From Fidelibacterota bacterium (GTDB lineage: Bacteria > Fidelibacterota > Marinisomatia > Marinisomatales > TCS55): 60,854 nucleotides of DNA. Positions 14,393 through 41,210 of the stretch are shown piece after piece (the first letter of the stretch is position 1; every line of letters begins with the position of its first letter). The DNA lies in contig JBHHTW010000010.1 of NCBI GenBank assembly GCA_046861385.1, forward strand, positions 1 to 60,854. The letters are read 5' to 3'. A program made the position numbers and the translations under genes. The notes beneath the pieces were generated by a model. The model ran no database searches. It was not told the origin of the DNA and saw only the letters and a program-made list of their open reading frames with translations.

Positions 14393-14398
14393 TAAATT

Positions 14399-16503: not shown

Positions 16504-16507
16504 CCAA

Positions 16508-19045: not shown

Positions 19046-19054
19046 TTAGTCATT

Positions 19055-19534: not shown

Positions 19535-19536
19535 AC

Positions 19537-21843: not shown

Positions 21844-21846
21844 ACA

Positions 21847-24389: not shown

Positions 24390-25409
24390 ATGTTGAAGAA
24401 TAATATCAATACTGTTCGTCTAATGTCTAATGAGAATCCATTTGGTCCTTCGCCGAAAGCTCTAGAGGCAATTAATAAATACAGTAAAGACATTCATTGC
24501 TATCCAGGATGGTATCCTAAAAAATTAAAAGCAAAACTTGCATCAAAATACCAAGTATCTCCGGAAAATATTGCTGTCTCTGCAGGGTCCTATGAACTCA
24601 TAAATCTTATTACCCGGTTTTTAGTTGCGGGTGATGAGGAGATCCTTACCTTTGATAATACATTTATGGCTTATAGTTACAGTGCAAAGCGTAATGGAAG
24701 AAAATGTGTTATCGCAAATATGTCCGGCTTTGACTGCGATTTGAATGATCTCGTTCCCCTTTGCGGAAAGAAAACAAGGGTCATATTTATTGCCAATCCA
24801 AATAATCCGACAGGAACCATTGTTACTGCTAGTTCACTAAAAAAACTATTAAAAACGATATCCACTGATATTTTGGTTGTTGTAGATGAAGCCTATTTTG
24901 AGTATGTCTCTGATGAATCGTATCCAGACACTGTTTCACTCCAAAAAGAATTCCCAAACTTAATAACCCTCCGTACCTTTTCAAAAATATATGGATTAGC
25001 CGGAATCCGAATCGGATATGGAATAGCCAATGAGAAACTGGTTAAAATACTCGAAGGCAACCGACTTTTGCGCTCTATAAACTATTTAGCTGAAAAAGCA
25101 GCTGAAGCAGCAATAGATGATTTCGATTTTATAAACCAATCAGCAAAATATAATGAACTAGAACGTACTAATTTACAGAAAGAATTAACACAGCTTGGAT
25201 TTAATGTAATACCCTCACATGCAAATTTTTTATACCTGCCTTTTGAGAATAATGATAAAAAGAATAATGTATATGCACAATTAGCCGATCACGGGTTAAA
25301 GGTTTGTGATTTAGCAATTTTTGGACATGAAAAAGCTTTGCGAATCACTGTTGGAAAAAATGATGCCAATATTCGCATCATTAATTGTCTCGCTCAGATA
25401 AAAGAATAA
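24390..25409 (+). CDS. HisC-like class II PLP aminotransferase (candidate aromatic amino acid aminotransferase)
   Basis: SNENPFGPSP, NPNNPTG, DEAY, RTFSKIYGLAGIRIGY, LRITVG; a second paralog sits in the his operon. Confidence 0.85.
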   Translation: MLKNNINTVRLMSNENPFGPSPKALEAINKYSKDIHCYPGWYPKKLKAKLASKYQVSPENIAVSAGSYELINLITRFLVAGDEEILTFDNTFMAYSYSAKRNGRKCVIANMSGFDCDLNDLVPLCGKKTRVIFIANPNNPTGTIVTASSLKKLLKTISTDILVVVDEAYFEYVSDESYPDTVSLQKEFPNLITLRTFSKIYGLAGIRIGYGIANEKLVKILEGNRLLRSINYLAEKAAEAAIDDFDFINQSAKYNELERTNLQKELTQLGFNVIPSHANFLYLPFENNDKKNNVYAQLADHGLKVCDLAIFGHEKALRITVGKNDANIRIINCLAQIKE

Positions 25410-25859: not shown

Positions 25860-26315
25860 ATGAATATGAGTTATGATAACCCAGCGGGAACCATGGAAAA
25901 AACGACTGGATTTCTAATGTTTAGAACGGCAAGGGGAATGAAAAAATTGCTGGATACCCGATTGAGCGAATTCAACATCACCTCCTCCCAGGCAACGGTG
26001 TTAAATACCCTAAGTTATCAGGACGGCCAATCTCTGTCGGATATTGGGAAAAGTATTCACCTTGATAAACCGGCCATCACCGGTTTGGCTGACAGAATGG
26101 AAAAAGATGGATTGGTTGAACGGCGGCGAACATCTTCAGATCGAAGAATCATTCAGCTCTTTTTTACAGAAAAAGGAAAAAAACTCTTTCATCAGATCGA
26201 AAAGGTTATTGTGGACGTCGATAATGAACTGGTGGAAGCACTTAGGGAAAAAGAAATCGAATCGCTGCATTCAATGCTGCAACGAATATGGAATAAATCA
26301 AACGGACAACCATAA
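25860..26315 (+). CDS. MarR family transcriptional regulator
   Basis: ITSSQATVL, LDKPAITGLADRMEKDGLVERR, DRR, TEKG winged-helix motifs. Confidence 0.92.
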   Translation: MNMSYDNPAGTMEKTTGFLMFRTARGMKKLLDTRLSEFNITSSQATVLNTLSYQDGQSLSDIGKSIHLDKPAITGLADRMEKDGLVERRRTSSDRRIIQLFFTEKGKKLFHQIEKVIVDVDNELVEALREKEIESLHSMLQRIWNKSNGQP

Positions 26316-26357: not shown

Positions 26358-27524
26358 ATGACTGTAAACGTAATGGAAGAATGGAAAGGGAAATCTCTCG
26401 ATGATATTCTTTGGCTTTGTCAGGAAACAATCGAAGATGCAGACGTAATGACCGTCAAGCGCTGGAGAGAAGCCGGTGGAAAAGTGGTGGGTCATTTCCA
26501 GGTATATTTTCCGGAAGAAATTGTTCATGCTGCCGGCATGCTGCCGATGAAAATGTTTGGCGCTTCGGTGGAAACAAAAAATTCAGACAGTCATTTTGGT
26601 TCTTATCTCTGCTCAATTATGAAAACCTGTCTAGAACAGGTTCTCTCCGGTCGGGTGGAACTGGATATGTTTGTCACCCACCCCATTTGTGACGCTGCCC
26701 GAAACCTGGCGCCCATCTGGGGAAGAAATTTTGATTATCCATGCCAGATTCTTTATCTACCTCAAAACCCCAATTCCGGTTATTCTGTTCAATATTTAAA
26801 AGAAGAATACGAGAGAATTAAAGGAGTCATCGAAGGAGTAGCCGGAAGAAAAATCACCAACGAAAATTTAGAAAATTCTATTTCTGTTTTTAATAAGAAC
26901 CGGGCATTACTAAGGAAATTATATCAAATCAAAATGGATCAACCCTGGTTGGTTTCTATCAATGAGGCCTATGTGCTAATGGCCATTGGGGGATTAATTC
27001 CCCGGGAAGAGCATAACGAAATTCTGGAAGAAGTTCTCCCGATGATTGAAAAAAGAAAAAATAGGAAACAGGATCGGATCCGGGTAGTATTTGAGGGCGG
27101 TTTTTGCGAACAGCCACCATTGGATATGTTGAGAACCATTGGCCGTTCCTGCTATGTGGTGGATGATGATTTATTAATCGGCCTCCGGTATTTGCTGGAA
27201 GATGTTGAACCGAACGGAGACCCCTTAAAGGCCATGGCAGAAGCCTATATCCATCATTCCACTTACAGTCCGGTGCAGCACGATCTCCGAAAACCAAAAG
27301 AAAGAATGTTGAGGGAACGGGTTCAAAATGCAAAGGCTGAAGCTGTCATCATTACCGCAGCAAAAATGTGTGAACCTGGGCTGGAAGAACAAGTGACTTA
27401 CACCCAGGAGTTTGATAAAAATAATACACCATACTTCGTTAGTGAATTTGAAGAAAATATGACCAGTTTTGATCATTTGGAAATACAATTAGAGACATTC
27501 GTTGAAAATTTAATATTTGATTGA
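26358..27524 (+). CDS. bcrC: Class I benzoyl-CoA reductase subunit C (BcrC/BadD-like)
   Basis: [43 protein letters not shown]; synteny with had/oah/dch. Confidence 0.85.
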
Positions 27525-27532
27525 GGTAGATA

Positions 27533-28831
27533 ATGAATAAGTTAAAATCAAAGAATATTGTTGGTAGAGGAACCCGTGAAGGAGCATCTTTATTTAGAGA
27601 TTGGTTCCAGGCCTTGACCAAAAAAGCAGAAAAAGGTGAAACCGCCGCCTATGTATTTGTCATGGGCAGCATTGCGGAAATACTCCGTGTATTTGACCTT
27701 CCTATGGTTTTTCCGGAAATCCATTCGCTACAAACTGCTGTGAGGCATGTGGCGGATGATTACCTGAATATAGCGGAAGATTATGGCTATTCTCCTGATA
27801 TCTGCGGGTATGTGAAAGCAGACTTTGCCATGCAGATGCAAAATGGTAAACACCCCATGGGGCAAATTCCAAAACCGGGGATTGCCGTGCTAACCAATGC
27901 CTGCAACACCTATTTGAAATGGGGAGAAATCTGGGAAAGAATTTATGATATTCCCATGTTCTCGATTGATGTCCCTGCCACACGGCAAGCCGGAACCAGA
28001 TCCTGGCCGGGCGATGAACAGTTTGAACGGGAAAGAAAATACGTCAAAGCACAACTACTGGAATTGATTGAACTGTGTGAAAAAGTAACGGGAAAGAAAT
28101 TTGATATTGACCGCCTGAGGGAAATCCTGGGCCATGTGAATACCATGAGCCGAGGCTGGGAAAGGGTGTTGGAATTAAATCAAAGCAGGCCTTCCCTTTT
28201 CAATGCGCTCACTGACGGAACCGTCTATCTGGGAATGTCCAATGTATTCAGAGGAACAGCGGAAGGGGCCCGATTCTTTGATCGACTGGTTGAAGAAATG
28301 GAATATATGTCTGCCAATGGAATCGGAACGCTCACAGATGAAAAATACCGGTTGAGTTTTATTGGTGTTCCCTGTTACCCGATTTTTCGACGGTTTAATG
28401 AAATGTTTACTGAATGGGGAGGCTCCTTTGTCATGTCCACTTATTTATGGTTTGCCGCCGGCGGATCCAATTTGGGGTTTCAATATGACTTAAATAATCC
28501 CATTGATTCCCTTTCCGAAGGGGTTCTCATCAGCGTACGGGATGCTATGGATTCCATGTTTCATCCTGAATTGACCGTTCTGAAAAAAGCCAATGAGTTT
28601 AATATTGACGGTGTCGTGTACCACCCCATCAAGAGCTGTCGTACCACCTCAGCCGGGATGGCAGACAATCGTCGCTCACTCATGGAAAACAGCGATCTGC
28701 CCAGCCTGTTCATTGAATCGGACATGATGGACTCACGGGTAGTCGGTGAAGCACAAATGAAAAATCGTATTGACGCCTTTTTTGAGGGATTGGCATCCCG
28801 AAAAACAAGGGCCGCAACGGTAGGAGTTTAA
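27533..28831 (+). CDS. bcrB: Class I benzoyl-CoA reductase subunit B (BcrB/BadE-like)
   Basis: [39 protein letters not shown] motifs. Confidence 0.85.
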
Positions 28832-28832
28832 T

Positions 28833-29642
28833 ATGGCATTAGCAGCAGGAGTGGACGTGGGATCCACACAAACAAAATCGGTTATTATTAATGAAGATCT
28901 GAAAATTGTGGGCCGTTCCTTGATTGACACCGGCGCCAATGTCATCAAGGCAGCAGAAAAAGCCTATCTGGAGGCATTGACTGACAGCAATCGGCGGGAA
29001 GAAGAAGTCGCGTATGTCATCGGAACCGGTTACGGAAGGTATAAAGTGACTTTTGGAGACACCCAGGTAACGGAAATCAGCTGTCACGGGCGAGGGGCCG
29101 TTCACATGTTCCCCAGCACCCGGACCGTTTTGGATATGGGAGGACAGGATACGAAAGCCATTGCCGTTAGTGAAACGGGAGAAATTATTGATTTTTGCAT
29201 GAATGATAAGTGCGCTGCCGGAACCGGCCGCTTTCTCGGAGCAGCATCCATGGCCCTGGATATTCCCCTAAACGAATTGGGGCCCACTGCCCTCCGATCT
29301 CAAAAACCAGTGAAAATCAGTACCACCTGTACCGTTTTTGCTGAAACTGAAGTATTATCTTGGTTGGGAAAGGGGAAAAAAATAGAGGACATTCTCCTGG
29401 GAGTACACAAGTCCATTTCATCTCGGTCCATCTCTTTGCTAAGACGGGTTGGTCTGAATGAACATATCACCTTTACCGGAGGAGTTGCCAAAAATATTGG
29501 TATGGTAGAAGTTCTCAATGAGAATCTGGAGATGAAAATGAACGTCAGTGAGGAATCTCACTACATGGGTGCCCTCGGGGCGGCCTTGTTTGCCATGGAC
29601 CACATTCAGGAAAGCCGGTTGCCGGCAGGAGGCCAAGCATGA
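28833..29642 (+). CDS. bcrA: Benzoyl-CoA reductase ATP-binding activase subunit (BcrA/BzdQ-like, short form)
   Basis: [45 protein letters not shown]; symbol partly by synteny. Confidence 0.75.
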
Positions 29643-30445
29643 AAAATTATGTTATCGGAGTAGACGTGGGGTCTACCTACACAAAAGCCGTCATTCTGAC
29701 GCCCAACAAAGAGCTGGTGGGTAAAGCCATGGTTCCCACCGGATTTAAGCTGGATAAAGCATCTGAAAATGTCTACGATCAAATCCTAAAAGATTCCGGC
29801 GTATCGAAAGATGAAATCGGCTATGCCATTTCCACCGGATACGGTCGCCATATGGTTCCATACAGGGATATTACCGTGACCGACTTAACGGCCACTGCCC
29901 GGGGATCAAACTATTTGTTTCCCGGAACACGAACGGTACTGGATATTGGCGGGCAGACCATGAAAGCCAGCCGCCTGGACGAAAGAGTAAAAGTGAAGTC
30001 CTTTCGTCTGAACGATAAGTGCGCCGCCGGAACCGGGGCTTTTCTGGAAAAAACAGCCCGGTATATGGGGTTTGAAACAGAGGAAATCGGACCGCTCGTT
30101 CAGACATCCAAAGATGAAGTTCCCATCTCCGGTGTGTGTGCCGTCTTTGCCGAATCAGAAGTCATTAATCAGCTATCTTTAGGTTCAGCACCGGCGGATA
30201 TTATGCACGGCGCCATGTCTTCACTGGTCAAGCGTGCCATTCAATTATTAAAGCGGGTGAAAATGGAATCACAGATTACACTCACCGGTGGCATTATGCG
30301 TTTTAAAACCATGGTGGATGTTTTGACGGTAAATGTTCCTGTCAAAATCAACGTCCCTGACGGTGAAATGGTTCAATTTACCACAGCCCTCGGTGCCGCC
30401 ACGCTGGCCCTTCAGCGACTGGATAAAGTTAGGGCATCTGCATGA
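29639..30445 (+). CDS. bcrD: Benzoyl-CoA reductase second ATP-binding activase subunit (BcrD/BzdP-like)
   Basis: [34 protein letters not shown]; overlaps previous gene; symbol by synteny. Confidence 0.7.
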
Positions 30446-30705
30446 GCGAACTCTGCGGAATATCATCATCTCCCAAAGATGAAGAATTGATGGCAGAAGG
30501 GTGGGTAAAACAATTCACCTGTGGTGAGCCAAGATTATCCGAATCCTGTGAATTATTTGAATCCATGGGCAGAGAGGTACACCTGGAAAAAATGAGAAAG
30601 GAAGATCAACCCATGGGGGCTGAATGTGACCTGTGCTTCATAACTTGTGGCGATGATATGATGACCATTTGGACCCGGGTAAAACAGGAGAGCCCAGCCA
30701 AATGA
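30442..30705 (+). CDS. Small hypothetical protein with CxxC, coupled to bcr genes
   Basis: ATGA overlap with the upstream stop; EGW...EPRLSE...EVHLE...CDLC...IWTR pattern. Confidence 0.7.
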   Translation: MSELCGISSSPKDEELMAEGWVKQFTCGEPRLSESCELFESMGREVHLEKMRKEDQPMGAECDLCFITCGDDMMTIWTRVKQESPAK

Positions 30706-30748: not shown

Positions 30749-32467
30749 ATGATACAACGCCCGATTCATTCCAGCTCAATTCCTTTACCTGATTATGCCC
30801 AAAACCTGGCCGTGCTGTTAAAAAATAATGCTGAACAGTTTTCTGATAATCCCATTTATCAGGAAGTGAATAACCAATCCTATGTGCCGTTGAAATGGAA
30901 TTTGTTTTATCAACGGTTACGATCCATTCAATCCTGGCTCCTCGATCATGGATTTCAGCCCGGCGACCGGATGGCTATTTTATCCAGAAATTGCCAAAAA
31001 ATGCTGGAGTTGGAGCTGGCTGTCATGTCCATGGGAGCCGTATCTGTGCCAATATTTTCAGGATATCCTCCCCGCCAGGCCAACCAGCTTCTTCAATTTT
31101 GCAACCCAACCATGGTGGCGGTTGATGATTTGAATCAACTTCAAAAAATCGAATCGCCGGATCAATTCAGCCATATCATCACCTTTTCATCTGTCGAAAA
31201 GAACACCCTATCCAATCTGTTTCATGTTGATACATTAACCTCGGCTCATCCCTTGACGGAAATTGTAGGATCAACTGTTCCCCCGGAGACTGTTTCTTTG
31301 ATGATGTACACTTCCGGAACCATGGGAATACCGAAATGTGTTCAATTGACCCATCAAAATATCCTGTCCCAGCAGGCGGCTATGAAAGCATTATGGGATT
31401 TAAATAGTCAGGATCGTTTTTTGTCTTATTTGCCCTGGCATCACAGTTTTGGGGGTATCTTTGAAAAGTATGCCGCCATTGTTAATGGCGCCCTATTGTC
31501 CTTGGAACACGGATACGGAAAAAATATTGATATATTGCTGGAAAACTGGGATAAGGTTCGCCCAACTGTCTTTTTCAGTGTTCCCCGTATTTACCAGGCA
31601 ATTGCCACGCGCATAATCCAGGATAAAGAAATAGAAAAAATGATTTTTCATCCTGAATTGCGGTTTATTTTCACCGCTGCCGCTCCCCTGCCAAAAAACA
31701 TTGCCGATCTTTTTGACGACCATGGAATTCCGGTGGTGGAAGGTTGGGGACTCACCGAGACTTCTCCCTGTTGTACTGTCACGGATCCCACCATTCCGCG
31801 GGAGCCGGGGGTAGTGGGAAAACCCATTCCAGGAGTATTTGTTAAAATAGATGAAAATGGTGAAATACTGGTTCAGGGTCCCAATGTGATGACCGGCTAC
31901 TACCGTAATCCGGAAGCAACCAAAAAGGTAATGAAAGAAGACGGGTGGTTTTGTACCGGCGATGTGGGTGAATATACGGAATCCGGGTTGAAACTGGTTT
32001 CCCGTAAGGACAGGATTTTTAAGTTAGTCAATGGCGAAAAAGTGGTCCCAACGGAGATTGAAAATATTATTGCCAAAGACTGTGCTTACCTGGCCCACGC
32101 CTTTGTCACCGGAAACGGACGGGATTATCCGGTGGTTCTGCTCTTTCCCAATAAGAATTTATTTTCCCAAAAACCCGATGAATCTCTCCTGCTGACGAAT
32201 TGTCAATGTCCCTCAGGAATGGAGGATTATGTTCAATGTCTGACCAAATGTCTTAATAAATGGAATCAATCCATCGATGCGAAATTTTCCAGATATAAAA
32301 AAGCCATGTTGATCGATTATGAACTCAGTATTGAAAATGAAGAGTTAACGCCGTCCATGAAACTGTCACCCAACCGGGTGGGGAACATTTTTAAAGCCAG
32401 GATTGAATCTCTTTATGAAAATGAAGATATTGATTCTGAAGAAGTTTATGTTATTAATTTGGAATAA
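30749..32467 (+). CDS. AMP-forming acyl-CoA synthetase (long-chain-ligase-like clade)
   Basis: YTSGTMGIPK, YLPWHH, EGWGLTETSP, GWFCTGDVG, RKDRIFKLVNGEKV, ELTPSMK; AGGAG RBS. Confidence 0.9.
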   Translation: MIQRPIHSSSIPLPDYAQNLAVLLKNNAEQFSDNPIYQEVNNQSYVPLKWNLFYQRLRSIQSWLLDHGFQPGDRMAILSRNCQKMLELELAVMSMGAVSVPIFSGYPPRQANQLLQFCNPTMVAVDDLNQLQKIESPDQFSHIITFSSVEKNTLSNLFHVDTLTSAHPLTEIVGSTVPPETVSLMMYTSGTMGIPKCVQLTHQNILSQQAAMKALWDLNSQDRFLSYLPWHHSFGGIFEKYAAIVNGALLSLEHGYGKNIDILLENWDKVRPTVFFSVPRIYQAIATRIIQDKEIEKMIFHPELRFIFTAAAPLPKNIADLFDDHGIPVVEGWGLTETSPCCTVTDPTIPREPGVVGKPIPGVFVKIDENGEILVQGPNVMTGYYRNPEATKKVMKEDGWFCTGDVGEYTESGLKLVSRKDRIFKLVNGEKVVPTEIENIIAKDCAYLAHAFVTGNGRDYPVVLLFPNKNLFSQKPDESLLLTNCQCPSGMEDYVQCLTKCLNKWNQSIDAKFSRYKKAMLIDYELSIENEELTPSMKLSPNRVGNIFKARIESLYENEDIDSEEVYVINLE

Positions 32468-32470
32468 GAA

Positions 32471-33670
32471 ATGGCTCAACTAAAATCACAATTATTACTT
32501 AAAGGAGTATTAAAAGATTATTTTACCGGCATGAAATCTCCCGTTGCCTGGTGTACCAGCGCCGGACCTGCAGAAATTTTGCGGGCTCTGGGATTTGACG
32601 TTTATTTTCCTGAGAATCATGGTGCATTATTGGGCGCTTCCCGAGCGGCTGAAAAATACATCCCCCGGGCCCATCAGGAAGGATACGACGGCGAAATATG
32701 TTCTTATTTAACAGCGGACATCGGGGCGTGGCTGATGAAAGAAACGCCCCTGACAAAAATTTATGGACTAAAATCTGTTCCAACGCCTGATTTGATTGTA
32801 TTTAACACCAACCAATGCCGGGAGGTGGCAGAATGGTTTAATTTCTTTGGACGACAGTACCAATGCCCGGTTGTCGGCATTTTTCCACCCAGATATCTGG
32901 AAGAAGTCACCCCGGCAGATGTGGATAATGTGGTGGAGCAATTAAAAAAGCTCATCACCGTCGGAGAGGAAATTATCGGATCCACCCTGGACCCGGCTAA
33001 ACTATCGAAAACAGTTGAATTGAGTTTTGAAGGATCCCGCCTTTGGAAAAAAGTACTGGAAACAGCGATTCATTCACCATCGCCTCTGACCTTTTTCGAC
33101 GGGTGTATATTAATGGCACCCATTGTCGTTCTCAGGGGCACAGAAATTTGTGTTGATTTCTATAAAGAAACACTGGCAGAATTAAATGATTTAGTTAAAA
33201 AGAACAACGGGGCCGTCCCAAATGAGCAGGTACGAATTTATTGGGAAGGGATGCCCGTTTGGGGGCGATTAAGATCCCTGTCTAAACTGTTTGCTGAAAA
33301 CCAGACATCTGTGGTGGCTTCCACCTATTGCAATAGTTGGGTATTTGATGACTTCGATCCTCAAAAGCCCCTGGAATCCATGGCTTATGCCTATACACAG
33401 ATTTTTATCAATCGGGGAGAAAATACCAAGCTGGAAATGATGAAGAACCTCATGGAAACGTTTCAGGTAGATGGCGTTGTCTTTCATGATTCCAAAACAT
33501 GTTTTAATAACGCAAACAGTCGTTTTGGATTACCCGGGCGAGTGAAAGAGTCTACCGGGAAAGATACTATTTCATTTGATGGCGATTTAGTAGATCTGAG
33601 ATTTTATTCTGACGGTCAAACCAAGACTAAACTTGAAACCTTTATTGAACAGTTAAAGTTTAAAAAATAA
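32471..33670 (+). CDS. 2-hydroxyacyl-CoA dehydratase family subunit (HgdA/FldB/BcrB paralog)
   Basis: FPENHGA, ICSY, NQC, HDSKTC, DGDLVD, TKLETFIEQL. Confidence 0.85.
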   Translation: MAQLKSQLLLKGVLKDYFTGMKSPVAWCTSAGPAEILRALGFDVYFPENHGALLGASRAAEKYIPRAHQEGYDGEICSYLTADIGAWLMKETPLTKIYGLKSVPTPDLIVFNTNQCREVAEWFNFFGRQYQCPVVGIFPPRYLEEVTPADVDNVVEQLKKLITVGEEIIGSTLDPAKLSKTVELSFEGSRLWKKVLETAIHSPSPLTFFDGCILMAPIVVLRGTEICVDFYKETLAELNDLVKKNNGAVPNEQVRIYWEGMPVWGRLRSLSKLFAENQTSVVASTYCNSWVFDDFDPQKPLESMAYAYTQIFINRGENTKLEMMKNLMETFQVDGVVFHDSKTCFNNANSRFGLPGRVKESTGKDTISFDGDLVDLRFYSDGQTKTKLETFIEQLKFKK

Positions 33671-34645
33671 ATGATCGATCATCCGAATAAGTCAAATAAA
33701 TCTGACCTGCCGTTAACCTTGGGTATCATTGGGGCAGGACCAGTGGGTCTCACCTTAGCCGCCCACCTGATTGAGGCAGGGAGTCAGGTGATCCTTTGCG
33801 ATATTGATACAGAAAAAATGGACGTGATAAAAAAGTCCGGAATTCACTTAACTCACACCATTCAAAAACAAGTGAACGCGGATCATGTTTGTTATTCCAT
33901 TGATGAACTGGAAGTTTTTCATCTGGACTTGGCAATCATATCGGTGAAAACGACCGCATTACCGATGGTGATTAAGCAGTTATCTAAAATAGATAATGGA
34001 CACATGTATGTCATGTGTGCTCAAAACGGCATCGATAACGAATTGATCGCTGCTGAAAAATTTGGTAAAGATAAAACATTAAGAATGGTCATTAATTACG
34101 CCGGTGGTATGAAAACACCGAATACAGTGGATATTACATTCTTCAATCCACCCAATTATGTGGCTCCCCTGAAAGAAGAAGGAAAACCTATTGCTGAAAA
34201 AGTGTGTATTTTTTTGAATTCAGTTAACTTGAATACTGATATTTGTGGATCAAATGAAATTCAGAATCACGTCTGGGAAAAAGCAATATTGAATGCAGCA
34301 TTGAGTGGTCTTTGCGCTATATCGCGCCGTACCATGAAAGAAGTGATGAGTTTTCCTGAAACAGTCGATATTATTACGGGGCTTATTGACGAATCTATTC
34401 AAGTTGCAAAAAAAGAAAATATCGAAATAAGAGACGGATTTCGTAATGATGGTATTGGCTACTTAAAAAACGCCGGTCATCATAAGCCATCCATGTTGAT
34501 TGACGTTGAGAATGGAGTAAAAACCGAAATTGATCAATTGAACGGTAAAATCGTGGAATATGGTAAAAAACATGGTTTAAGAACACCATTGAATCAAGCC
34601 GTTACAGCGTTAATTCATTTGCAGGAACGAGCAGAAAATGGGTAA
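33671..34645 (+). CDS. Ketopantoate-reductase (PanE/ApbA) family 2-oxoacid reductase
   Basis: GAGPVG, SVK, QNG, WEKAILNA, HKPSMLID, TEIDQLNG. Confidence 0.85.
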   Translation: MIDHPNKSNKSDLPLTLGIIGAGPVGLTLAAHLIEAGSQVILCDIDTEKMDVIKKSGIHLTHTIQKQVNADHVCYSIDELEVFHLDLAIISVKTTALPMVIKQLSKIDNGHMYVMCAQNGIDNELIAAEKFGKDKTLRMVINYAGGMKTPNTVDITFFNPPNYVAPLKEEGKPIAEKVCIFLNSVNLNTDICGSNEIQNHVWEKAILNAALSGLCAISRRTMKEVMSFPETVDIITGLIDESIQVAKKENIEIRDGFRNDGIGYLKNAGHHKPSMLIDVENGVKTEIDQLNGKIVEYGKKHGLRTPLNQAVTALIHLQERAENG

Positions 34646-35399
34646 TCATTATCTCGGGATTGACCTTGGCTCCTCTTACACAAAATTTGCAGTAATAGAT
34701 AATTCCACCAACCTTGTGTTTAATAATGTGATTCCAACATTGAGCCGGAATAAAGACATGTTCAAAAACCAATTGGATGATATTTATAATCAGTTTTCTA
34801 TCAGACGGATATGTACCACCGGATACGGACGTGATACATTTGAAGGTGACCTCAAAAAAACAGAACTCATTTGTGCTTCCGCCGGAGTTTCAGCATTGTT
34901 CCATGAACATAAATGCATCATTGACATTGGCGGTGAAGATATCAAGATCATTGAAAGCGGTCCTGGTGGAGAAGTAATCAACTTTTATATGAATGATAAG
35001 TGTTCTGCCGGGACAGGAACTTTCATTACAGAAATCGCAGAAAAAGCTGAATTAGAAATTGGTGAAATGAGCGATCTCGCCAAAATATCCTCAGGTTCTA
35101 AAATAATAAACAGTTTCTGTACTGTTTTTGCCAAATCAGAAATCCTGGGATGGAAGTTCAACGATATTCCCATTGAGGAAATAGCAAAAGGAATTTACCT
35201 GTCAATTGTATCACGATTACGAAAATTACCTGTTAAAACCAATATTCCCATCATTTTAAGTGGTGGCGTGATTGCATATCATCCTTATCTGAAGGACTTA
35301 TTATCTGAAGAATTTTTAACTGATGTGATTATTCCATCTAATCCCCAGTACATGGTTGCATTGGGGGCTTCAATTTTGGCAATGAAATATGAAGCATAA
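34638..35399 (+). CDS. CoA-substrate-specific activase (HgdC/FldI family)
   Basis: GIDLGSS, TGYGR, DIGGED, MNDKCSAGTG, CTVFAKSE, ALGA. Confidence 0.88.
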   Translation: MGNHYLGIDLGSSYTKFAVIDNSTNLVFNNVIPTLSRNKDMFKNQLDDIYNQFSIRRICTTGYGRDTFEGDLKKTELICASAGVSALFHEHKCIIDIGGEDIKIIESGPGGEVINFYMNDKCSAGTGTFITEIAEKAELEIGEMSDLAKISSGSKIINSFCTVFAKSEILGWKFNDIPIEEIAKGIYLSIVSRLRKLPVKTNIPIILSGGVIAYHPYLKDLLSEEFLTDVIIPSNPQYMVALGASILAMKYEA

Positions 35400-35426: not shown

Positions 35427-36485
35427 ATGAATAAAATCCAAGCTTGGCAAATGATCGAAAAAGATCACCCTTTTGAAAAAGTGGAATTGCCAATATCCGA
35501 ACTGAAAAATGACTGTGCAATAGTTGAAGTTTCCGGGTGCGGTGTGTGCCACACAGATTTGAGTTTCTGGCATTATGGCGTTCCAACACGTCACGAACTT
35601 CCTCTTGTTTTAGGTCATGAAATCAGTGGGATGGTCATTGATGGCCCAGCTCATTTAGTGGAAAAACCAGTGATTATCCCGGCAGTAATGCCCTGCGGAG
35701 AATGTGACTTATGCCTAGCCGGAAGAAGTAATATTTGTCAAAAACAACAGATGCCCGGGAATGATTTCCATGGCGGTTTTGCTAGCCATGTGGTAACCCC
35801 TGCCAGGTATTTGGCGGAAGTTTTAGATGAAGCTTTGCTTAATCATACTTTAGCAGAGCTTGCTGTTATTGCCGATGCCGTATCCACTCCTTATCAAGTC
35901 ATGGTGAAAAGCAAAATTCAAGAAGGTGACTTTGCAGTAATCATTGGTGTAGGCGGTGTGGGCATTTATGCGGCTCAACTGGCAAATATTTTTGGTGGGA
36001 ATGTTTTGGCGTTGGATATTTCTCAGGAAAAACTGGATCAGCTTCAACTGGTGGGGATTAATCAAACAATAAATATTTCCGGTTTGGACGTGCGCGAAAT
36101 TAAATCGGCTGTTAAAGAAAAATGCCGGGAAATGGGTGCCCCTTCTACCCGATGGAAGATTTATGAAATGTCCGGTACAAAACAGGGACAGGAATTGGCC
36201 TTTGCCCTGCTGGGAATCGCCAGTACTTTATCAATCGTTGGATTTACTATGGATAAATTGGATGTTCGATTAAGTAACCTCATGGCATTTGATGCAAATA
36301 TTATTGGTACGTGGGGGTGTAAACCTGAACTTTATGCAGATGTCCTAAAACTGGTTTCTGAAGACAAATTAAAAATAAAACCATTTTCAGAAACATTTCC
36401 CATGTCACAAATCAATGAAATATTTCAACAAACATTAGAACATAAATTGAGTAAACGATCTGTGATGATACCGGATTTTGAATAA
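35427..36485 (+). CDS. had: 6-hydroxycyclohex-1-ene-1-carbonyl-CoA dehydrogenase
   Basis: Zn-ADH GCGVCHTDL, GHEISG, PAVMPCGECDLC, QQMPGNDFHGGFASH, RLSNLMAFDA, WGC; adjacent to oah. Confidence 0.9.
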   Translation: MNKIQAWQMIEKDHPFEKVELPISELKNDCAIVEVSGCGVCHTDLSFWHYGVPTRHELPLVLGHEISGMVIDGPAHLVEKPVIIPAVMPCGECDLCLAGRSNICQKQQMPGNDFHGGFASHVVTPARYLAEVLDEALLNHTLAELAVIADAVSTPYQVMVKSKIQEGDFAVIIGVGGVGIYAAQLANIFGGNVLALDISQEKLDQLQLVGINQTINISGLDVREIKSAVKEKCREMGAPSTRWKIYEMSGTKQGQELAFALLGIASTLSIVGFTMDKLDVRLSNLMAFDANIIGTWGCKPELYADVLKLVSEDKLKIKPFSETFPMSQINEIFQQTLEHKLSKRSVMIPDFE

Positions 36486-36638: not shown

Positions 36639-37724
36639 ATGAGTAAAAATTTAGTAAACCACAATTTAGTAGATATTGATTATAAAGAAATTATCTATGA
36701 GTTACGTCCATGTTTTGATAATGAAGGGAATGCGGTTGATGGATTAAACAATGCATGGATTTTTCTAAATAATCCAATCCAGTACAATTCTTACACAACC
36801 GCTGCTGTGAAAGAAATTATACTTGCTTTTCGTGAAGCTTCAAATGATCGTAGTGTCGTCGCTGTTATTTTTTCAGCTGTTGGCAATAAAGCATTCTGTA
36901 CCGGGGGAAATACAAAAGAATATGCAGAGTATTATTCAGGCAAACCCCTGGAATACAAGCAATACATGCGATTATTTAATGACATGATCACCACCATTTT
37001 GCATTGCGACAAACCGGTCATTTGCCGAGTGAACGGCATGCGGATCGCCGGCGGACAGGAAATCGGAATGGCCTGTGACTTTTCCATCGCCAGCGATTTG
37101 GCCGTCTTTGGACAGGCAGGACCTAAACATGGCAGCGCCCCTGATGGAGGCAGCACGGATTTTCTCCATCTCTACGTGGGAATCGAACGAGCCATGCTGA
37201 GCGGCGTCCTGTGTGAAATGTGGACGGCCTACGAAGCGAAGAATTTTGGGTTGATCACCGATGCGATTCCTGTGTTGAAAATCAACGGTGAATTCGTGCA
37301 AAACCCTCTGTTAATCACCGATAGATGGGTCAATGATTCCGGTGAAGTTGTTTTCGGTAAAAAGAAATCCGGAGATGAATACAAAGCAGGTAAAAAGTTA
37401 CTGATGAATGGAGAAATTGATCTATCGCCGTTGGATGATGCTGTGAATGAAATGGCCACAAAAATGATGTACCTTATGCCGGAATGCACCAGCAAAACTT
37501 TGAACAGTCTTCGTAAAAAGAAACTGGAACATTGGGATCAAAATAGTCAAACCAATCGAGATTGGTTGGCACAAAACATGGTAACAGAAGCGCGGGCTGG
37601 ATTCAGGGCGTTTAACGAAGGCCCAAAAGGAAACCGTGAAGTGGACTTTATCAAACTTCGTCAAATGCTGGCTGAAGGGCATCCCTGGGATGATGAATTG
37701 GTAGAAGCGATATTACCTAAATAA
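36639..37724 (+). CDS. oah: 6-oxocyclohex-1-ene-1-carbonyl-CoA hydrolase (Oah/BamA)
   Basis: QYNSYTT, AFCTGGNTKEYAEYY, RVNGMRIAGGQEIGMACDF, QAGPKHGSAPDGGSTDFL, GFRAFNEG. Confidence 0.95.
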   Translation: MSKNLVNHNLVDIDYKEIIYELRPCFDNEGNAVDGLNNAWIFLNNPIQYNSYTTAAVKEIILAFREASNDRSVVAVIFSAVGNKAFCTGGNTKEYAEYYSGKPLEYKQYMRLFNDMITTILHCDKPVICRVNGMRIAGGQEIGMACDFSIASDLAVFGQAGPKHGSAPDGGSTDFLHLYVGIERAMLSGVLCEMWTAYEAKNFGLITDAIPVLKINGEFVQNPLLITDRWVNDSGEVVFGKKKSGDEYKAGKKLLMNGEIDLSPLDDAVNEMATKMMYLMPECTSKTLNSLRKKKLEHWDQNSQTNRDWLAQNMVTEARAGFRAFNEGPKGNREVDFIKLRQMLAEGHPWDDELVEAILPK

Positions 37725-37820: not shown

Positions 37821-38384
37821 ATGACATTTATTCAAGGACATTATTATCATATCTACAACCGGGGATGCAATAAAGAAAAGATTTTTTTCTGTGAAAACAA
37901 TTACTATTATTTACTAAAGAAAATGAAAACTTCTTTTCAAGATTATGGTGCGAATGTGATTGCATATTGCCTGATGCCGAATCACTACCATTTTCTTGCG
38001 CAGCAAATAACGGGAATGAAATTTTCAAAGTGGCTGCGCAAAATATTTAATGGTTATTCTCAAGCCATCAATAAACAGAAAAATCGAACCGGTACATTAT
38101 TTGAAGGCCGCCCTAAACATATTTTGATCGATAAGGAAGAATATTTGGATCATTTGATGTGGTATATTCACACCAATCCTGTTTCTGCTAATATAGTTGC
38201 CAAACCGGAACAATGGAAATTTTCAAATTATCTGGAGTGTATTGGAAAACGGGATGGATTAATGTTTGATAAGGACTTTATACATCAAAGATATGGTTCA
38301 TTCCATGAATACGAAAAATTTATCAATGAATATGAAGGAAACCAATTATTAGAAATGGGAATGGGAGAATATCTTTTTGATTAA
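37821..38384 (+). mobile_element. REP-associated tyrosine transposase (RAYT, Y1 HUH family)
   Basis: YYHIYNRG, AYCLMPNHYHFL (HUH), RTGTLFEGR, YIHTNPV, WKFSNY; flanked by inverted REP palindromes. Confidence 0.9.
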
Positions 38385-38531: not shown

Positions 38532-39299
38532 ATGAATAAAATAATTAAAGAAGAACTATTTGACGGCCAGGTTATTCGCTTTACGCTCAATGCCCCCAAG
38601 GCAAATGTTCTGGATGCAGAAATGATGGAACAACTACAATCTGGACTTGGAGAAATTAGTACCAATGTAAAACTTATTCAATTGACAGGTACGGGAGAAC
38701 ATTTCAGTTTTGGCGCATCCGTCACTGAACATACCAAAGAAAATGCACCTAAAATGCTTCGACAGTTTCACAGTCTTTTTAAAACAATGATTAATTTATC
38801 TATACCGACGATGGCAATGGTATCCGGCCAATGTCTTGGCGGGGGATTGGAGTTAGCCATTTTCTGCAATTTCCTGTTTCTAGATGAAACGGCGCGTATG
38901 GGACAACCGGAAATTATGTTGGGTGTTTTCGCTCCGCCCGCATCCCTGATTCTACCAATGAAAGTAGGACAGGCAAAAGCCGATGATCTGCTTCTCACCG
39001 GCAGAAGTATGAAACCAAAAGAAGTGATGTCATCAGGTTTGGGGACACAGTTGTTTGAAGACAACCAGTCCATGATTAAAGGGGCAGATTCGTGGGTGGA
39101 AAAACACATCTTACCCAAAAGTGCATCATCATTACGGTTTTCAAATAGTGCAGCACGGACTATTTTTCATGAAACCCTAAAAGAAAAATTGGACAAACTT
39201 GCAGAATTTTATACAAACGAATTGATGGAAACCCGCGATGCTAATGAAGGAATTAACTCTTTTCTTGAGAAGCGAAAGCCCCGGTGGAAAAATAAATAA
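38532..39299 (+). CDS. dch: Cyclohexa-1,5-diene-1-carbonyl-CoA hydratase
   Basis: PKANVLD, HFSFGASVTEH, GQCLGGGLE, GQPEIMLGVFAP; benzoyl-CoA pathway context. Confidence 0.88.
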   Translation: MNKIIKEELFDGQVIRFTLNAPKANVLDAEMMEQLQSGLGEISTNVKLIQLTGTGEHFSFGASVTEHTKENAPKMLRQFHSLFKTMINLSIPTMAMVSGQCLGGGLELAIFCNFLFLDETARMGQPEIMLGVFAPPASLILPMKVGQAKADDLLLTGRSMKPKEVMSSGLGTQLFEDNQSMIKGADSWVEKHILPKSASSLRFSNSAARTIFHETLKEKLDKLAEFYTNELMETRDANEGINSFLEKRKPRWKNK

Positions 39300-39318
39300 C
39301 CAAATACAGGATCATTCA

Positions 39319-40068
39319 ATGAAAAAACGACTTGATGGAAAAATTGCCCTGGTAACAGGAGGAAGTTCCGGTATCGGAACAGCCATTGTTCACAGTCTGG
39401 CAAAGGAAGGAGCCCATGTAGCTTTCACTTACCACAGCAATAAAGAAGGGGCGAAAACGGTTCTTTCCGATATAAAATCAATGGGAGTGGAAGGGGTCTA
39501 TTTTCAAGCAGATATGGCTGATTTTTCCAACGCTCAGGAAGTAACGGATCAAGTAACTGATCAATATGGAACTCTGGACATTTTAGTGAATAACGCCGGG
39601 GCCAATCAAGACAAAGTCATTTGGAAAATGACTGAAACGATGTGGGACGAAGTGATCGACACTGACTTGAAAGGTGTTTTTAATTACATTCGTGCTGCTT
39701 CACCTAATTTTAGAGAACAGAAATCAGGGCGAATAATAACAGTTTCTTCGATTAATGCTCTCCGTGGGAAATTTGGTCAATCAAATTATGCAGCTGCCAA
39801 GGCCGGGGTTATTGGCTTATCTAAAAGTGTTGCCAAGGAATTGGGGAGATCAAATGTGACAGTCAATGTTGTTTGCCCGGGTCTTATTGCCACAAAGATG
39901 ATTCAAAATATGCCCGATGATTTTAAACAAAAAGCCATGGAAGAAATTGTTCTGGGTCGAATTGGCACTCCAGAGGACATTGCAGAATTGGTGACATTTT
40001 TAGCCGGTGACAGCGCCAGACACATTACAGGCGAAGTAATCAAAGTAGATGGGGGTCAATACATATAA
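39319..40068 (+). CDS. SDR oxidoreductase (FabG-like; candidate 3-hydroxypimeloyl-CoA dehydrogenase)
   Basis: TGGSSGIG, NNAG, YAAAK, VDGG; ATG at 39319. Confidence 0.85.
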   Translation: MKKRLDGKIALVTGGSSGIGTAIVHSLAKEGAHVAFTYHSNKEGAKTVLSDIKSMGVEGVYFQADMADFSNAQEVTDQVTDQYGTLDILVNNAGANQDKVIWKMTETMWDEVIDTDLKGVFNYIRAASPNFREQKSGRIITVSSINALRGKFGQSNYAAAKAGVIGLSKSVAKELGRSNVTVNVVCPGLIATKMIQNMPDDFKQKAMEEIVLGRIGTPEDIAELVTFLAGDSARHITGEVIKVDGGQYI

Positions 40069-41210
40069 TGGCAAAAGCATTTTTAATCGATGGCTGTCGT
40101 TCACCCATTGGCCGGGGACATCCTGAAAAAGGCATCTTTTCAGCCATTCGGGCAGATGAATTATGTGTTCAAGTATTACAATCACTTATTGAAAGAACAA
40201 AACTTAATCCTGAATTGATTGATGATTTCTATCTCGGATGTGTGGGACAGCATTTGGAGCAGGGGAAAAATTTAGCCCGGCTTACCGTATTACTGGCCGG
40301 ATTACCCAATACCATTCCCGGGGCCACTATCAATCGCCTTTGTGCATCCAGTCTCACTGCTTTGCAAATGGCTTCGGATAGTATTAAAACAGAAACCAAT
40401 AATCAATTGCTTGTTGGCGGTGTGGAACATCTGGGTCATGTCCCCATGACAGCTGCCTTAAACTATCATCCCGATCTGTTTAAGGGATACGATCTTCACT
40501 GGACCAATATGGGACTGACAGCAGAAAAATTATCGGAAGATTTCCAAATCAGTAAACAAAAGCAGGATTTGTTTACCATTGAATCCAATCAGCGGTATTT
40601 CGCTGCGAAAGAAGCTGGTTTTCTGGATAAAGAAGTGGTTTCTATTACCCTACCCGATGGCCAGACCGTTGTAGATGACCAGGAACCGCGATTATCATCA
40701 CTGGAATCCCTGGGGAAACTGCGAACGGTATTCAAAGAAAACGGTACCATTACCGCCGCCAACAGTTCCGGAATATCCGATGGGGCGTGTATGGCATGGG
40801 TCGGCAATCAATCTGTCGTTGATCAAGTTGATGAAAATCCTCTGGCCGAAATCGGCCCCACTGTTAATGTGGGTCTTGACCCGGAGACCATGGGACTAGG
40901 ACCTGTTTTTGCCATAAAGAAATTATTAAATAAGACGGGATTAGCTTTAGATGATATCGGTTTATTTGAGATTAATGAAGCATTCGCCGTTCAGGTGTTG
41001 GCCTGCAGAGATGAATTGGGAATCGACCCCAAAAAACTGAATATTCACGGCGGAGCCGTTGCCCTGGGCCATCCTCTTGGAATGTCCGGGCTGAGAATTG
41101 CCGTGACGCTGGCCCACAGCATGATTGAAAAAAATGTACCATATGGTATTGCATCGCTTTGTGTTGGCCACGGTCAGGGTGTTGCCATGCTGCTGAAACG
41201 AAATCCATGA
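40068..41210 (+). CDS. Acetyl-CoA C-acyltransferase (candidate 3-oxopimeloyl-CoA thiolase)
   Basis: NRLCASS, EINEAFA, GHPLG, LCVGHGQG. Confidence 0.9.
   Translation: MAKAFLIDGCRSPIGRGHPEKGIFSAIRADELCVQVLQSLIERTKLNPELIDDFYLGCVGQHLEQGKNLARLTVLLAGLPNTIPGATINRLCASSLTALQMASDSIKTETNNQLLVGGVEHLGHVPMTAALNYHPDLFKGYDLHWTNMGLTAEKLSEDFQISKQKQDLFTIESNQRYFAAKEAGFLDKEVVSITLPDGQTVVDDQEPRLSSLESLGKLRTVFKENGTITAANSSGISDGACMAWVGNQSVVDQVDENPLAEIGPTVNVGLDPETMGLGPVFAIKKLLNKTGLALDDIGLFEINEAFAVQVLACRDELGIDPKKLNIHGGAVALGHPLGMSGLRIAVTLAHSMIEKNVPYGIASLCVGHGQGVAMLLKRNP

Follow-up and report, generated by a model that had tools for sequence, protein, structure and literature searches.

A conserved four-gene module with a lone HadB-like dehydratase subunit in a benzoyl-CoA operon of Fidelibacterota

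Introduction

What would a radical 2-hydroxyacyl-CoA dehydratase subunit and its activase be doing in the middle of an oxidative benzoyl-CoA operon, and how would such a subunit operate if no partner subunit were encoded alongside it? These questions are raised by four genes at positions 30749-35399 of a 60,854-nt stretch of DNA (the window; contig JBHHTW010000010.1) from a Fidelibacterota bacterium, whose assembly comprises 2.43 Mb and is 97.85% complete. We refer to the genes as LIG, HGDX, PANE and ACTV, which encode, in this order, an acyl-CoA ligase, an HGD-D family protein, a ketopantoate-reductase-family oxidoreductase and an activase. They are flanked by bcrCBAD-like genes on the 5' side and by had and oah on the 3' side, within a long run of forward-strand genes. 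The original prediction, made from the letters of the window and its open reading frames (ORFs), described the four genes as tightly coupled between bcr and had. This description holds: the ORFs lie at exactly these coordinates, their Pfam and NCBIfam families agree, LIG and HGDX are separated by 3 nt and HGDX and PANE by 0 nt, PANE and ACTV overlap by 8 nt, and had starts 27 nt 3' of ACTV.

A radical 2-hydroxyacyl-CoA dehydratase with its activase is a known kind of system, and an alpha-only variant residing in an oxidative benzoyl-CoA operon has so far been noticed only as an annotation. We consider it fairly probable that the module described here converts an arylpyruvate by way of aryllactate and aryllactyl-CoA to an arylacrylyl-CoA, which beta-oxidation would then shorten to benzoyl-CoA. 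The present analysis establishes the gene content of the locus, the families to which its products belong, the conservation of the gene set, and the lack of both a beta-type partner for HGDX and a panB gene.

The four genes recur together

A scan of one genome per species yielded 414 stretches encoding an HGDX relative, and the best 80 of these 414 were analysed, with spurious antisense ORFs in high-GC loci removed from the gene tables by hand. Domains and families were assigned with Pfam profiles and with NCBIfam profiles judged against their curated cut-offs. In 23 loci (L001-L023, the close group) HGDX is at least 65% identical to the window protein, with the gene split in L016. HGDX is followed by PANE in all 23, and LIG lies 5' of HGDX in 22, the exception being a 3.3-kb contig (L022) that begins inside HGDX. 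ACTV is a separate gene in 19 loci, and in the other 4 it is fused to PANE. These in-frame fusions, with PANE as the N-terminal part, come from four related metagenome-assembled genomes (MAGs), span 569-617 aa and carry the ApbA, ApbA_C and BcrAD_BadFG domains. Because the grouping recurs in 23/23 loci at this level of identity, it reflects more than chance, and the co-occurrence that the original prediction had proposed as a test of itself is therefore observed.

Genes for a benzoyl-CoA reductase (BCR) are visible upstream of the module in 20/23 close loci and had is visible downstream in 19/23, and every miss falls at a contig or locus end. The neighbouring BCR is of two kinds, either similar to that of the window (70-96% identical, 7 loci) or only about 30% identical to it (13 loci), and in L009 it is of the canonical Thauera type (TIGR02263, 427 bits against a cut-off of 421.15; TIGR02260, 616.5 against 486.55). 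The module itself is 58-89% identical across loci with either kind. The MAGs carrying close loci are titled Marinimicrobia/Fidelibacterota, Calditrichota, Zixiibacteriota, Bacteroidetes, Lentisphaeria and an 'Alphaproteobacteria' bin, labels that can be wrong.

The association with ring cleavage is also evident across the phylum. Among 201 genomes, whose kinship makes them less than independent, 22 contain oah (E<=1e-60) and 22 contain HGDX (E<=1e-80), with 20 having both. The exceptions are G148 and G083, which have only oah, and G164 and G015, which have only HGDX. In G148 the contig ends inside had, and the HGDX and LIG queries gave no match. G083 carries a variant module (locus L091, contig C55, positions 9000-13207, reverse strand) consisting of bcrD, an HGD-D gene 32% identical to HGDX, LIG (63%), PANE (47%) and had, and it lacks a separate activase gene, such that its divergent HGD-D protein may rely on BcrAD. 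In G015, HGDX (46%), ACTV and LIG (40%) reside beside an Oah-like gene. LIG also adjoins HGDX or an HGD-D gene in L050 and L068, and exceptions such as G083 and G015 indicate that LIG travels with the HGD-D gene even when gene order and partners have changed.

HGDX is a HadB-like subunit for which no beta-type partner is encoded

The whole assembly holds only three PF06050 genes, encoding a BcrC-like protein, a BcrB-like protein and HGDX, and only three genes of the activase family. Apart from BcrB and BcrC, no beta-type partner for HGDX (HadC, HgdB or FldC) is encoded in the module or elsewhere in the genome, in agreement with the original prediction of a single dehydratase-family subunit.

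Which subunit type HGDX represents is indicated by three kinds of comparison. Its NCBIfam scores are 199.6 bits for HadB alpha (NF052455; cut-off 750), 141.6 for BcrB (TIGR02260; 486.55), 84.1 for BzdO (TIGR03191; 448.6) and 57.8 for the double-cubane cluster protein (DCCP; NF040772; 350), and thus it lies below every one of these equivalog cut-offs. Searched by sequence against the Protein Data Bank (PDB), HGDX matches HadB alpha (8.1e-44), MbdO (1.6e-22), BzdO (6.7e-21) and DCCP (1.1e-4), and no beta- or N-type chain was found at E<=0.01. When an AlphaFold model of HGDX (pLDDT 90.4) was compared with solved folds, the TM-score was 0.90 for HadB alpha (3o3m_A), 0.86-0.88 for BzdO and MbdO, 0.75-0.79 for DCCP and 0.71-0.73 for beta/N subunits, with HadC beta at 0.71. 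Sequence identity is about 25% to HadB and 27% to the BcrB-like protein of the window. By profile, sequence and modelled fold, HGDX is of the catalytic alpha, or 'O', subunit type and is nearest to HadB. It falls outside the DCCP family, having only five conserved cysteines compared to a seven-cysteine motif in addition to its low NF040772 score, and also outside the class I BCR B/O subunits, given its subthreshold scores, the single ACTV gene and the existence of relatives without BCR genes.

An alignment of 58 family members shows no variation at C77, C116, C287 and C344, and conservation of at least 90% at C28. C77, C116 and C344 align with cysteines of HadB, MbdO and BzdO, and the corresponding ligands in BzdO, Cys95, Cys128 and Cys380, hold the catalytic [4Fe-4S]-OH2 cluster (PMC11971306). 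HGDX residue E48 is aligned with Glu65, the catalytic glutamate of BzdO (PMC11971306), and the W-x-T-S and P-E-N motifs are common to HGDX and HadB. C287 and C344 align with DCCP cysteines, and a comparison of spacing shows that HGDX retains 5/7 positions of the DCCP cysteine motif as quoted in PMC7317905. We had considered C287 as a mark of a retained second Fe-S sub-cluster, but we now give it little weight because relatives with 32% and 46% identity have T or A at this position. His131 and Trp46 of BzdO were likewise rejected as BCR markers, as both are missing from the BcrB-like protein of the window and from the canonical BcrB of L009.

The original prediction had raised the possibility of a homodimeric dehydratase. 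Two copies of HGDX co-folded with a 58-row alignment gave an ipSAE of 0.83, compared to 0.00 for the best control, a mark that is reached by 20/30 proteins solved as one-chain pairs and by 1/23 solved as single chains. Separate runs share at least 92% of contacts, and the partner pLDDT is at least 93. The predicted interface involves residues 70-76, 113-124, 136-157, 316-318 and 340-356, alongside the cluster cysteines. HGDX is therefore predicted to form a homodimer, and the suggestion has passed its controls at the level of structural modelling.

Partner enzymes of the putative dehydratase

PANE scores 164.8 bits with TIGR00745 (cut-off 141.35) and has the domains of a ketopantoate reductase (KPR). 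It is the only strong ApbA-family gene product of the genome, and one of the two weak matches is GpsA. An apparent second PanE and ligase pair on contig C39 was discarded, since its 'PanE-like' member is GpsA, residing beside a FadD11-like ligase. No match to panB (PF02548) was found in the 97.85% complete genome, whereas the same search was positive in 11/14 named genomes used as a control. Without panB there would be no supply of ketopantoate, and a role for PANE in ketopantoate reduction is therefore unlikely, which favours the original prediction that it is a reductase of some other 2-oxoacid. Its location in a catabolic operon and its fusion to the activase in 4 loci likewise speak against a part in pantoate synthesis. 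The nearest solved relatives of PANE are Enterococcus-type KPR-family proteins (2ew2, 90.4 bits; 3wfi, 79.2 bits), and E. coli PanE gives only 24.5 bits. We take 3wfi to be a D-mandelate dehydrogenase, and the PanE protein of Lactococcus is a D-2-hydroxyacid dehydrogenase. We propose that PANE is an (R)-2-hydroxyacid-forming reductase of 2-oxoacids, specifically of arylpyruvates.

LIG is less easily placed. All of its NCBIfam matches are far below cut-off (best 226.7 versus 777), its best PDB match is oxalate-CoA ligase (126.5 bits), and in the ESM Atlas it matches only generic AMP-binding clusters. We propose that it is a 2-hydroxyacid-CoA ligase acting on aryllactate. No CoA-transferase such as HadA, FldA or GctAB is present in the module, where the AMP-forming ligase precedes HGDX instead. 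The other AMP-binding genes of the genome encode Acs, acetoacetate-CoA ligase, two FadD11-like proteins, one large multidomain protein and a distant PaaK-like protein, and no canonical benzoate-CoA ligase was seen among them. Benzoyl-CoA would therefore arise only inside the cell, from the module and from an indoleacetate-like cluster described below, or else LIG itself is an aromatic-acid ligase.

ACTV exceeds the TIGR00241 cut-off (166.2 versus 125.4 bits). Among 62 aligned activases its residues C122 and C161 are invariant, and both the G-x-D-x-G motif and K16 are at least 93% conserved.

A wider family with a changing CoA-activating enzyme

A further 57 of the analysed loci encode HGDX relatives that are 50-55% identical to the window protein. 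They are distributed among Thermoplasmata, Desulfobacterales, Desulfuromonadales, Elusimicrobia, Myxococcales, Gemmatimonadaceae, Gammaproteobacteria and others. An activase gene adjoins HGDX in 55/57 of these distant loci, and another HGD-D gene occurs within 8 kb in only 3/57. PanE-family genes are found within 4-5 kb in 25-27/57, IorA in 14/57 and PaaK in 13/57, and a thiol1-type thiolase that is 50-57% identical to the product of window positions 11029-12237 occurs in 7/57. An ADP-forming acyl-CoA synthetase (ACD) is encoded within 5 kb in 31/57 loci, either this enzyme or an AMP-forming ligase in 38/57, and an acetyl-CoA-hydrolase/transferase-family gene in 4/57. The typical deltaproteobacterial order is had-iorA-iorB-paaK-panE-activase-HGDX-ACD-fadD-like-thiolase, in which had (TIGR03201, 470 bits versus 338.65) and iorA (TIGR03336, 760 versus 650.9) exceed their cut-offs.

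Judged by these family assignments, the CoA-activation step has undergone non-orthologous displacement across the family, with an AMP-forming ligase in some loci and an ADP-forming synthetase in others. A CoA-activating enzyme of varying descent beside HGDX is as expected if this enzyme supplies the substrate of HGDX. Co-occurrence of the genes, the likeness of HGDX to HadB alpha and the missing beta partner together support the scheme of 2-oxoacid reductase, CoA ligase and radical dehydratase with activase that the original prediction had set out. Its choice of aryl substrates, the specificity it gave to the ligase and the part in beta-oxidation that it gave to the upstream IaaP- and IaaA-like genes are putative.

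Six Proteobacteria loci combine an Hcr-like (4-hydroxybenzoyl-CoA reductase-like) molybdenum (Mo) enzyme, HGDX, an activase and KorAB-like genes, without PanE. In a proteobacterial MAG (L058, 11403-13920, forward strand), an activase-HGDX-ACD core is followed by genes for a class II aldolase and a tannase/feruloyl-esterase (PF07519, 2.3e-146), a context that hints at plant-phenolic substrates for some family members.

Comparison with known systems

The most informative precedent is Desulfococcus multivorans, which lacks PadB and PadEFGHI and whose route onward to benzoyl-CoA was called unclear (PMC5109826). This organism grows on phenyllactate, and phenylpyruvate, phenyllactate and cinnamate are degraded via benzoyl-CoA (PMC5109826). 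A triad of its genes was annotated in 2016 as predicted phenylpyruvate reductase, phenyllactate dehydratase alpha and activator, with iorA3, iorB3 and an ACT-domain protein listed before it and fadD4 and a further AMP-forming ligase after it (PMC5109826, Table S1), and a 680-aa HCDH/ECH fusion and a 396-aa thiolase are encoded nearby (PMC5109826). The triad resembles L045-type loci, as it comprises three genes (416, 269 and 319 aa), is alpha-only and lies beside iorAB and CoA ligases, and thus it lends support to the aryllactate-type chemistry of the original prediction. Proteins of two adjacent gene clusters are formed specifically with phenylacetate and phenylpyruvate; those named are a TRAP uptake system, a CoA ligase, Hbd5, a hydratase, a thiolase and IorA3B3, and the triad is not among them in the text available (PMC5109826). 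The triad is known from annotation only, and the authors wrote of phenyllactate being converted into phenylpyruvate and, in the parts of the article available, proposed no route via cinnamoyl-CoA (PMC5109826). D. multivorans also uses a class II (Bam) reductase, unlike the class I-type BCR of the window. For another sulfate reducer, a phenyllactyl-CoA dehydratase step toward benzoyl-CoA has been hypothesised and a 'singular' FldB-like gene mentioned (PMC13416013). Within the literature and text portions covered, we found this hypothesis and the PMC5109826 annotation, and neither an experimentally shown alpha-only dehydratase nor an aryllactyl-CoA route to benzoyl-CoA.

The closest biochemical parallel is the HadBC/HadI/HadA/LdhA system of Clostridioides difficile (3o3m, 3o3n, 3o3o). 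The module shares with it the three-cysteine site, the motifs, a dedicated TIGR00241 activase and the progression from 2-oxoacid through (R)-2-hydroxyacid and CoA ester to enoyl-CoA. Unlike the HadBC system, the module encodes no HadC-type beta subunit, and HGDX is predicted to form a homodimer. Its ligase is AMP-forming and takes the position of the CoA-transferase, its reductase belongs to the KPR rather than the D-2-hydroxyacid-dehydrogenase (2HADH) family, and the genes are located in an oxidative benzoyl-CoA operon rather than in the reductive branch of a Stickland pathway. FldABC of Clostridium sporogenes is a heterotrimer of FldBC and the CoA-transferase FldA, which acts with the initiator FldI and FldH and leads to arylpropionates. 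Compared by description only, Fld resembles the module in its ATP-dependent activation and in the substrate and product that we propose, aryllactyl-CoA and arylacrylyl-CoA, and differs in that the module has one subunit type, a ligase and an onward beta-oxidation to benzoyl-CoA.

The catalytic BCR subunits BcrB, BzdO and MbdO (8s02, 9g87) share with HGDX the subunit type and the three-cysteine [4Fe-4S] site, whereas HGDX has no N/C-type partner of its own and is accompanied by one ATPase gene, not two. DCCP and its activase DCCP-R (6eno, 7yyl) parallel HGDX and ACTV as a homodimeric HGD-D protein, a state that is predicted for HGDX, with a homodimeric activase, but the resemblance is weak (E of 1e-4, TM-score 0.75-0.79, 57.8 bits, an incomplete seven-cysteine motif), and the channels of DCCP have been described as too narrow for CoA esters (PMC7317905).

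A proposed aryllactyl-CoA route and its rivals

For the route that we favour, the radical mechanism is taken over from the HadBC/HadI and FldBC/FldI systems, and like all of the substrates and the direction in which flux runs it is an inference. An aminotransferase would form an arylpyruvate (phenyl-, 4-hydroxyphenyl- and perhaps indolylpyruvate), which PANE would reduce to (R)-aryllactate with NAD(P)H. LIG would form the CoA thioester at the cost of ATP, taking the place of the clostridial CoA-transferase. An ACTV homodimer with a bridging [4Fe-4S] cluster on C122/C161 would use ATP to inject one low-potential electron into HGDX, and the HGDX homodimer, with its [4Fe-4S] cluster held by the three cysteines C77, C116 and C344, would eliminate water via a ketyl radical to yield cinnamoyl-CoA or 4-coumaroyl-CoA. 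The hydratase, dehydrogenase and thiolase of the operon could then shorten the side chain to give benzoyl-CoA or 4-hydroxybenzoyl-CoA plus acetyl-CoA, from which the Hcr-like enzyme, BCR, Dch, Had and Oah would continue.

Several considerations weigh against this proposal. Every substrate is deduced from gene context. All characterised 2-hydroxyacyl-CoA dehydratases are, to our knowledge, alpha-beta heterodimers, and a working alpha2 enzyme would be without precedent. The homodimer score may reflect likeness to known structures or memory on the part of the model, because HadBC, BzdNO and the homodimeric DCCP have all been solved. HGDX retains C28 and C287, and the alignment of C287 with a DCCP cluster cysteine hints at a cofactor unlike that of HadB. 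LIG is not close to any characterised enzyme, the NCBIfam models that fit it best are named for fatty-acid ligases, and it could be the aromatic-acid ligase of the cluster, given that no canonical benzoate-CoA ligase was seen. The frequency of PanE-family genes in the distant loci shows that family members need not be accompanied by the reductase. Only one dch-like hydratase is present in the cluster, and the short-chain dehydrogenase/reductase (SDR) and thiolase are equally well explained by the 3-hydroxypimelyl-CoA steps. Finally, the D. multivorans protein Dmul_24850 was likened to the HGDX family by length, order and annotation only, not by sequence.

If these enzymes carried out the same chemistry on a non-aromatic 2-hydroxyacid, the substrate might be 2-hydroxyglutarate (with glutaconyl-CoA as product), 2-hydroxyisocaproate or lactate, and the 2-hydroxyglutarate version would connect 2-oxoglutarate to the benzoyl-CoA pathway at its glutaryl-CoA end, possibly in reverse. 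The closest characterised relative of HGDX is indeed an aliphatic enzyme, 2-hydroxyisocaproyl-CoA dehydratase, and Thermoplasmata relatives reside beside general beta-oxidation genes with no benzoyl-CoA gene in view. Readily reversible ADP-forming CoA synthetases near 31/57 distant relatives, KorAB-like genes 3' of HGDX in the six Proteobacteria loci, and the finding that no glutaryl-CoA dehydrogenase scored above cut-off among the acyl-CoA dehydrogenases tested point the same way. We nevertheless judge a non-aromatic substrate unlikely. The close subfamily is bound to BCR/had/oah operons wherever its flanks are visible and accompanies oah in 20/22 genomes, the distant loci are rich in IorAB and PaaK, the AMP-forming ligase argues for flux from acid to CoA ester, and the D. 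multivorans gene clusters were reported to be induced by phenylpyruvate and phenylacetate (PMC5109826).

Slightly less probable still is the proposal that HGDX and ACTV form an ATP-driven, homodimeric, DCCP- or BCR-like reductase that acts on a benzoyl-CoA analogue by removing or reducing one of its substituents. The substituent might be an ortho- or meta-hydroxy or amino group, for example that of 2-aminobenzoyl-CoA from the indoleacetate-like cluster 8-27 kb upstream, with LIG acting as an aromatic-acid ligase, as the lack of a canonical one would permit, and PANE acting on a ring ketone or alcohol. The predicted homodimer and the partial DCCP motif (5/7 positions by spacing, PMC7317905; C287 aligned directly) are consistent with this proposal, and it is kept alive by loci without PanE, as HGDX follows an Hcr-like Mo enzyme in seven Proteobacteria/Acidobacteria loci and the six Proteobacteria loci described above also carry KorAB-like genes. 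HGDX is, however, nearer HadB than any reductase by sequence and fold, its double-cubane score is only 57.8 bits against a cut-off of 350, it lacks one cysteine of the distal sub-cluster set, and more distant relatives do not retain C287. The single activase gene follows the dehydratase pattern, although DCCP-R is also homodimeric, and PanE and CoA-ligase partners better fit the entry of a 2-oxo- or 2-hydroxyacid. The original prediction had itself offered another alternative, a swap in which HGDX replaces BcrB alongside BcrC and ACTV replaces BcrAD to confer a second BCR substrate specificity. HGDX is of the same subunit type as BcrB and BzdO, its gene invariably neighbours BCR genes in the close subfamily, the genome encodes no further HGD-D proteins except BcrC and BcrB, and in G083 the divergent HGD-D gene lies directly 3' of bcrD with no separate activase seen. 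A shared interface is unlikely all the same, because the module is conserved (58-89% identical) beside BcrC/BcrB proteins that are either 70-96% or about 30% identical to those of the window, the two BCR types being about 30% identical to each other. The 50-55% identical relatives, moreover, lack any BCR gene, and indeed any other HGD-D gene, in 54/57 loci, HGDX is only 27% identical to the BcrB of the window, and PANE and LIG are left unexplained. We therefore disfavour this swap and consider it very improbable.

Were the aryllactyl-CoA route correct, it would explain how Desulfococcus, Desulfobacula and many uncultured lineages, as strict anaerobes that lack PadBCD and PadEFGHI, form benzoyl-CoA from phenylpyruvate, and marine Marinimicrobia would be anaerobic consumers of aromatic amino acids. 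The module thus offers a testable answer to the step from phenylpyruvate or phenylacetate to benzoyl-CoA without PadBCD/PadEFGHI that was called unclear in PMC5109826, and it predicts that the benzoyl carbonyl derives from C3 of phenylalanine and not from C2. Since 20/22 genomes of the phylum with oah carry the module, the benzoyl-CoA pathway may be used chiefly for aromatics derived from protein, in sea water and sediments poor in oxygen. An alpha-only dehydratase would also imply that the reaction can do without the beta subunit and its [4Fe-5S] cluster, and a homodimeric enzyme of CoA esters would then stand between DCCP and the heterodimeric dehydratases and BCR enzymes. More tentatively, and with rather more doubt than confidence, we suggest that HGDX represents a third architecture in the BCR/2-hydroxyacyl-CoA-dehydratase family, an alpha2 enzyme acting on CoA esters with a cofactor between those of the double-cubane proteins and HadB/BzdO, and that the module is a widespread 'aryllactyl-CoA route' from Phe and Tyr (and perhaps Trp) to benzoyl-CoA.

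The surrounding gene cluster

The features of the cluster are collected in Table 1. At its head is an aminotransferase gene that, from context, is a candidate for a Phe/Tyr:2-oxoglutarate aminotransferase. A second hisC is located at 50856, inside the his operon, and a homologue of the cluster gene occupies the same position in L001, L004 and L014. The MarR-family gene has a homologue in this position in 16/23 close loci.

Table 1. Features of the module and its surroundings in the window, and PanE-activase fusion genes of other loci. Scores are Pfam E-values or NCBIfam bits.
Feature	Coordinates	Strand	Assignment and remarks
HisC-family class I/II aminotransferase	24390-25409	+	Aminotran_1_2 6.1e-54; TIGR01141 (hisC) 299.2 > 276.55
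MarR-family regulator	25860-26315	+	MarR 1.9e-16; directly 5' of operon
C-like BCR gene	26358-27524	+	HGD-D; TIGR02263 266.5, cut-off 421.15
B-like BCR gene	27533-28831	+	HGD-D; TIGR02260 195.8, cut-off 486.55
A-like BCR gene	28833-29642	+	BcrAD_BadFG
D-like BCR gene	29639-30445	+	BcrAD_BadFG
87-aa Cys-rich ORF	30442-30705	+	Between bcrD and LIG; overlaps bcrD stop codon, ends 43 nt before LIG
LIG	30749-32467	+	572 aa; AMP-binding 1.1e-64, AMP-binding_C_3 1e-12; AMP-forming acyl-CoA ligase, FadD11/PRK12582-like
HGDX	32471-33670	+	399 aa; HGD-D (PF06050) 2.4e-58; HadB-alpha-like HGD-D protein
PANE	33671-34645	+	324 aa; ApbA_C (PF08546) 6.1e-32, ApbA (PF02558) 1.8e-18; ketopantoate-reductase-family NAD(P)H oxidoreductase
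ACTV	34638-35399	+	253 aa; BcrAD_BadFG 8.9e-33; HgdC/HadI-type ATP-dependent activase
had	35427-36485	+	TIGR03201 436.5 > 338.65; ring-cleaving step, benzoyl-CoA pathway
oah	36639-37724	+	TIGR03200 559 > 464.45; ring-cleaving step, benzoyl-CoA pathway
REP-associated tyrosine transposase (IS200/Y1 family)	37821-38384	+	NF047646 72.3, just below cut-off 80; between oah and dch-like gene
dch-like enoyl-CoA hydratase	38532-39299	+	TIGR03189 232.9 < 292.5
FabG-like SDR	39238-40068	+	Pfam domains begin at residue 35
Thiolase	40068-41210	+	TIGR01930 398 > 240.55
4-hydroxybenzoyl-CoA reductase-like Mo enzyme, gamma/alpha/beta	41266-44941	+	TIGR03193 158.6, TIGR03194 836.9 (cut-off 994.55), TIGR03195 194.2
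PanE-activase fusion, L005	2286-3995
PanE-activase fusion, L008	3281-5035
PanE-activase fusion, L010	8131-9984
PanE-activase fusion, L014	9197-10918

By their profile matches, the genes at 26358-30445 encode a divergent type of class I benzoyl-CoA reductase. None of the four reaches an equivalog cut-off, whether Thauera-type or Bzd-type, and the A-like subunit, at only 269 aa, lacks the N-terminal extension. The 87-aa ORF that follows them carries six cysteines, with a CX2CX3C motif near the C-terminus, and matches no Pfam family at E<=1. By tblastn, 8 close loci have a counterpart at the corresponding position (56-83% identity) and 3 Thermoplasmata loci give weak matches (38-50%), and the ORF may encode a small Fe-S electron carrier.

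Downstream of oah, the annotated start of the SDR gene overlaps the dch-like gene by 62 nt and its domains begin only at residue 35, and so the true start is probably further downstream. The hydratase, SDR and thiolase encoded at 38532-41210 could act in beta-oxidation of the arylacrylyl-CoA side chain, in the 3-hydroxypimelyl-CoA steps, or in both. The presence of a 4-hydroxybenzoyl-CoA reductase-like Mo enzyme in the cluster implies 4-hydroxybenzoyl-CoA as an intermediate. Predicted promoters (48, versus 43.5 +/- 8.1 in shuffled sequences) and terminators (18, versus 17.8 +/- 4.1) are not in excess between 24000 and 42000, and hence no internal signals can be claimed for this region. A copy of the REP-associated transposase, 68% identical to that of the window, is found 3' of oah in L007.

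Upstream of the benzoyl-CoA cluster, positions 3528-22710 (forward strand) carry genes for an HCDH/ECH fusion, hydantoinase A and B, a small ATC-hydrolase-like ORF, an acyl-CoA dehydrogenase, a thiolase, the small and large subunits of a B12-dependent mutase, a family III CoA-transferase, a fused IOR-like 2-oxoacid oxidoreductase and a three-subunit Mo hydroxylase. We take this set to resemble the anaerobic indoleacetate (iaa) cluster of Aromatoleum/Azoarcus, which ends in 2-aminobenzoyl-CoA. The iaa-like cluster includes no ligase gene, and the distant PaaK-like gene of the genome is on contig C68. On contig C80 (122841-124211, forward strand) the genome also carries its sole gene of the aromatic amino-acid lyase family (PF00221, 575.8 bits, in a 517-aa frame), which, if it encoded a phenylalanine or tyrosine ammonia-lyase (PAL/TAL), would offer a second way to cinnamate or coumarate.

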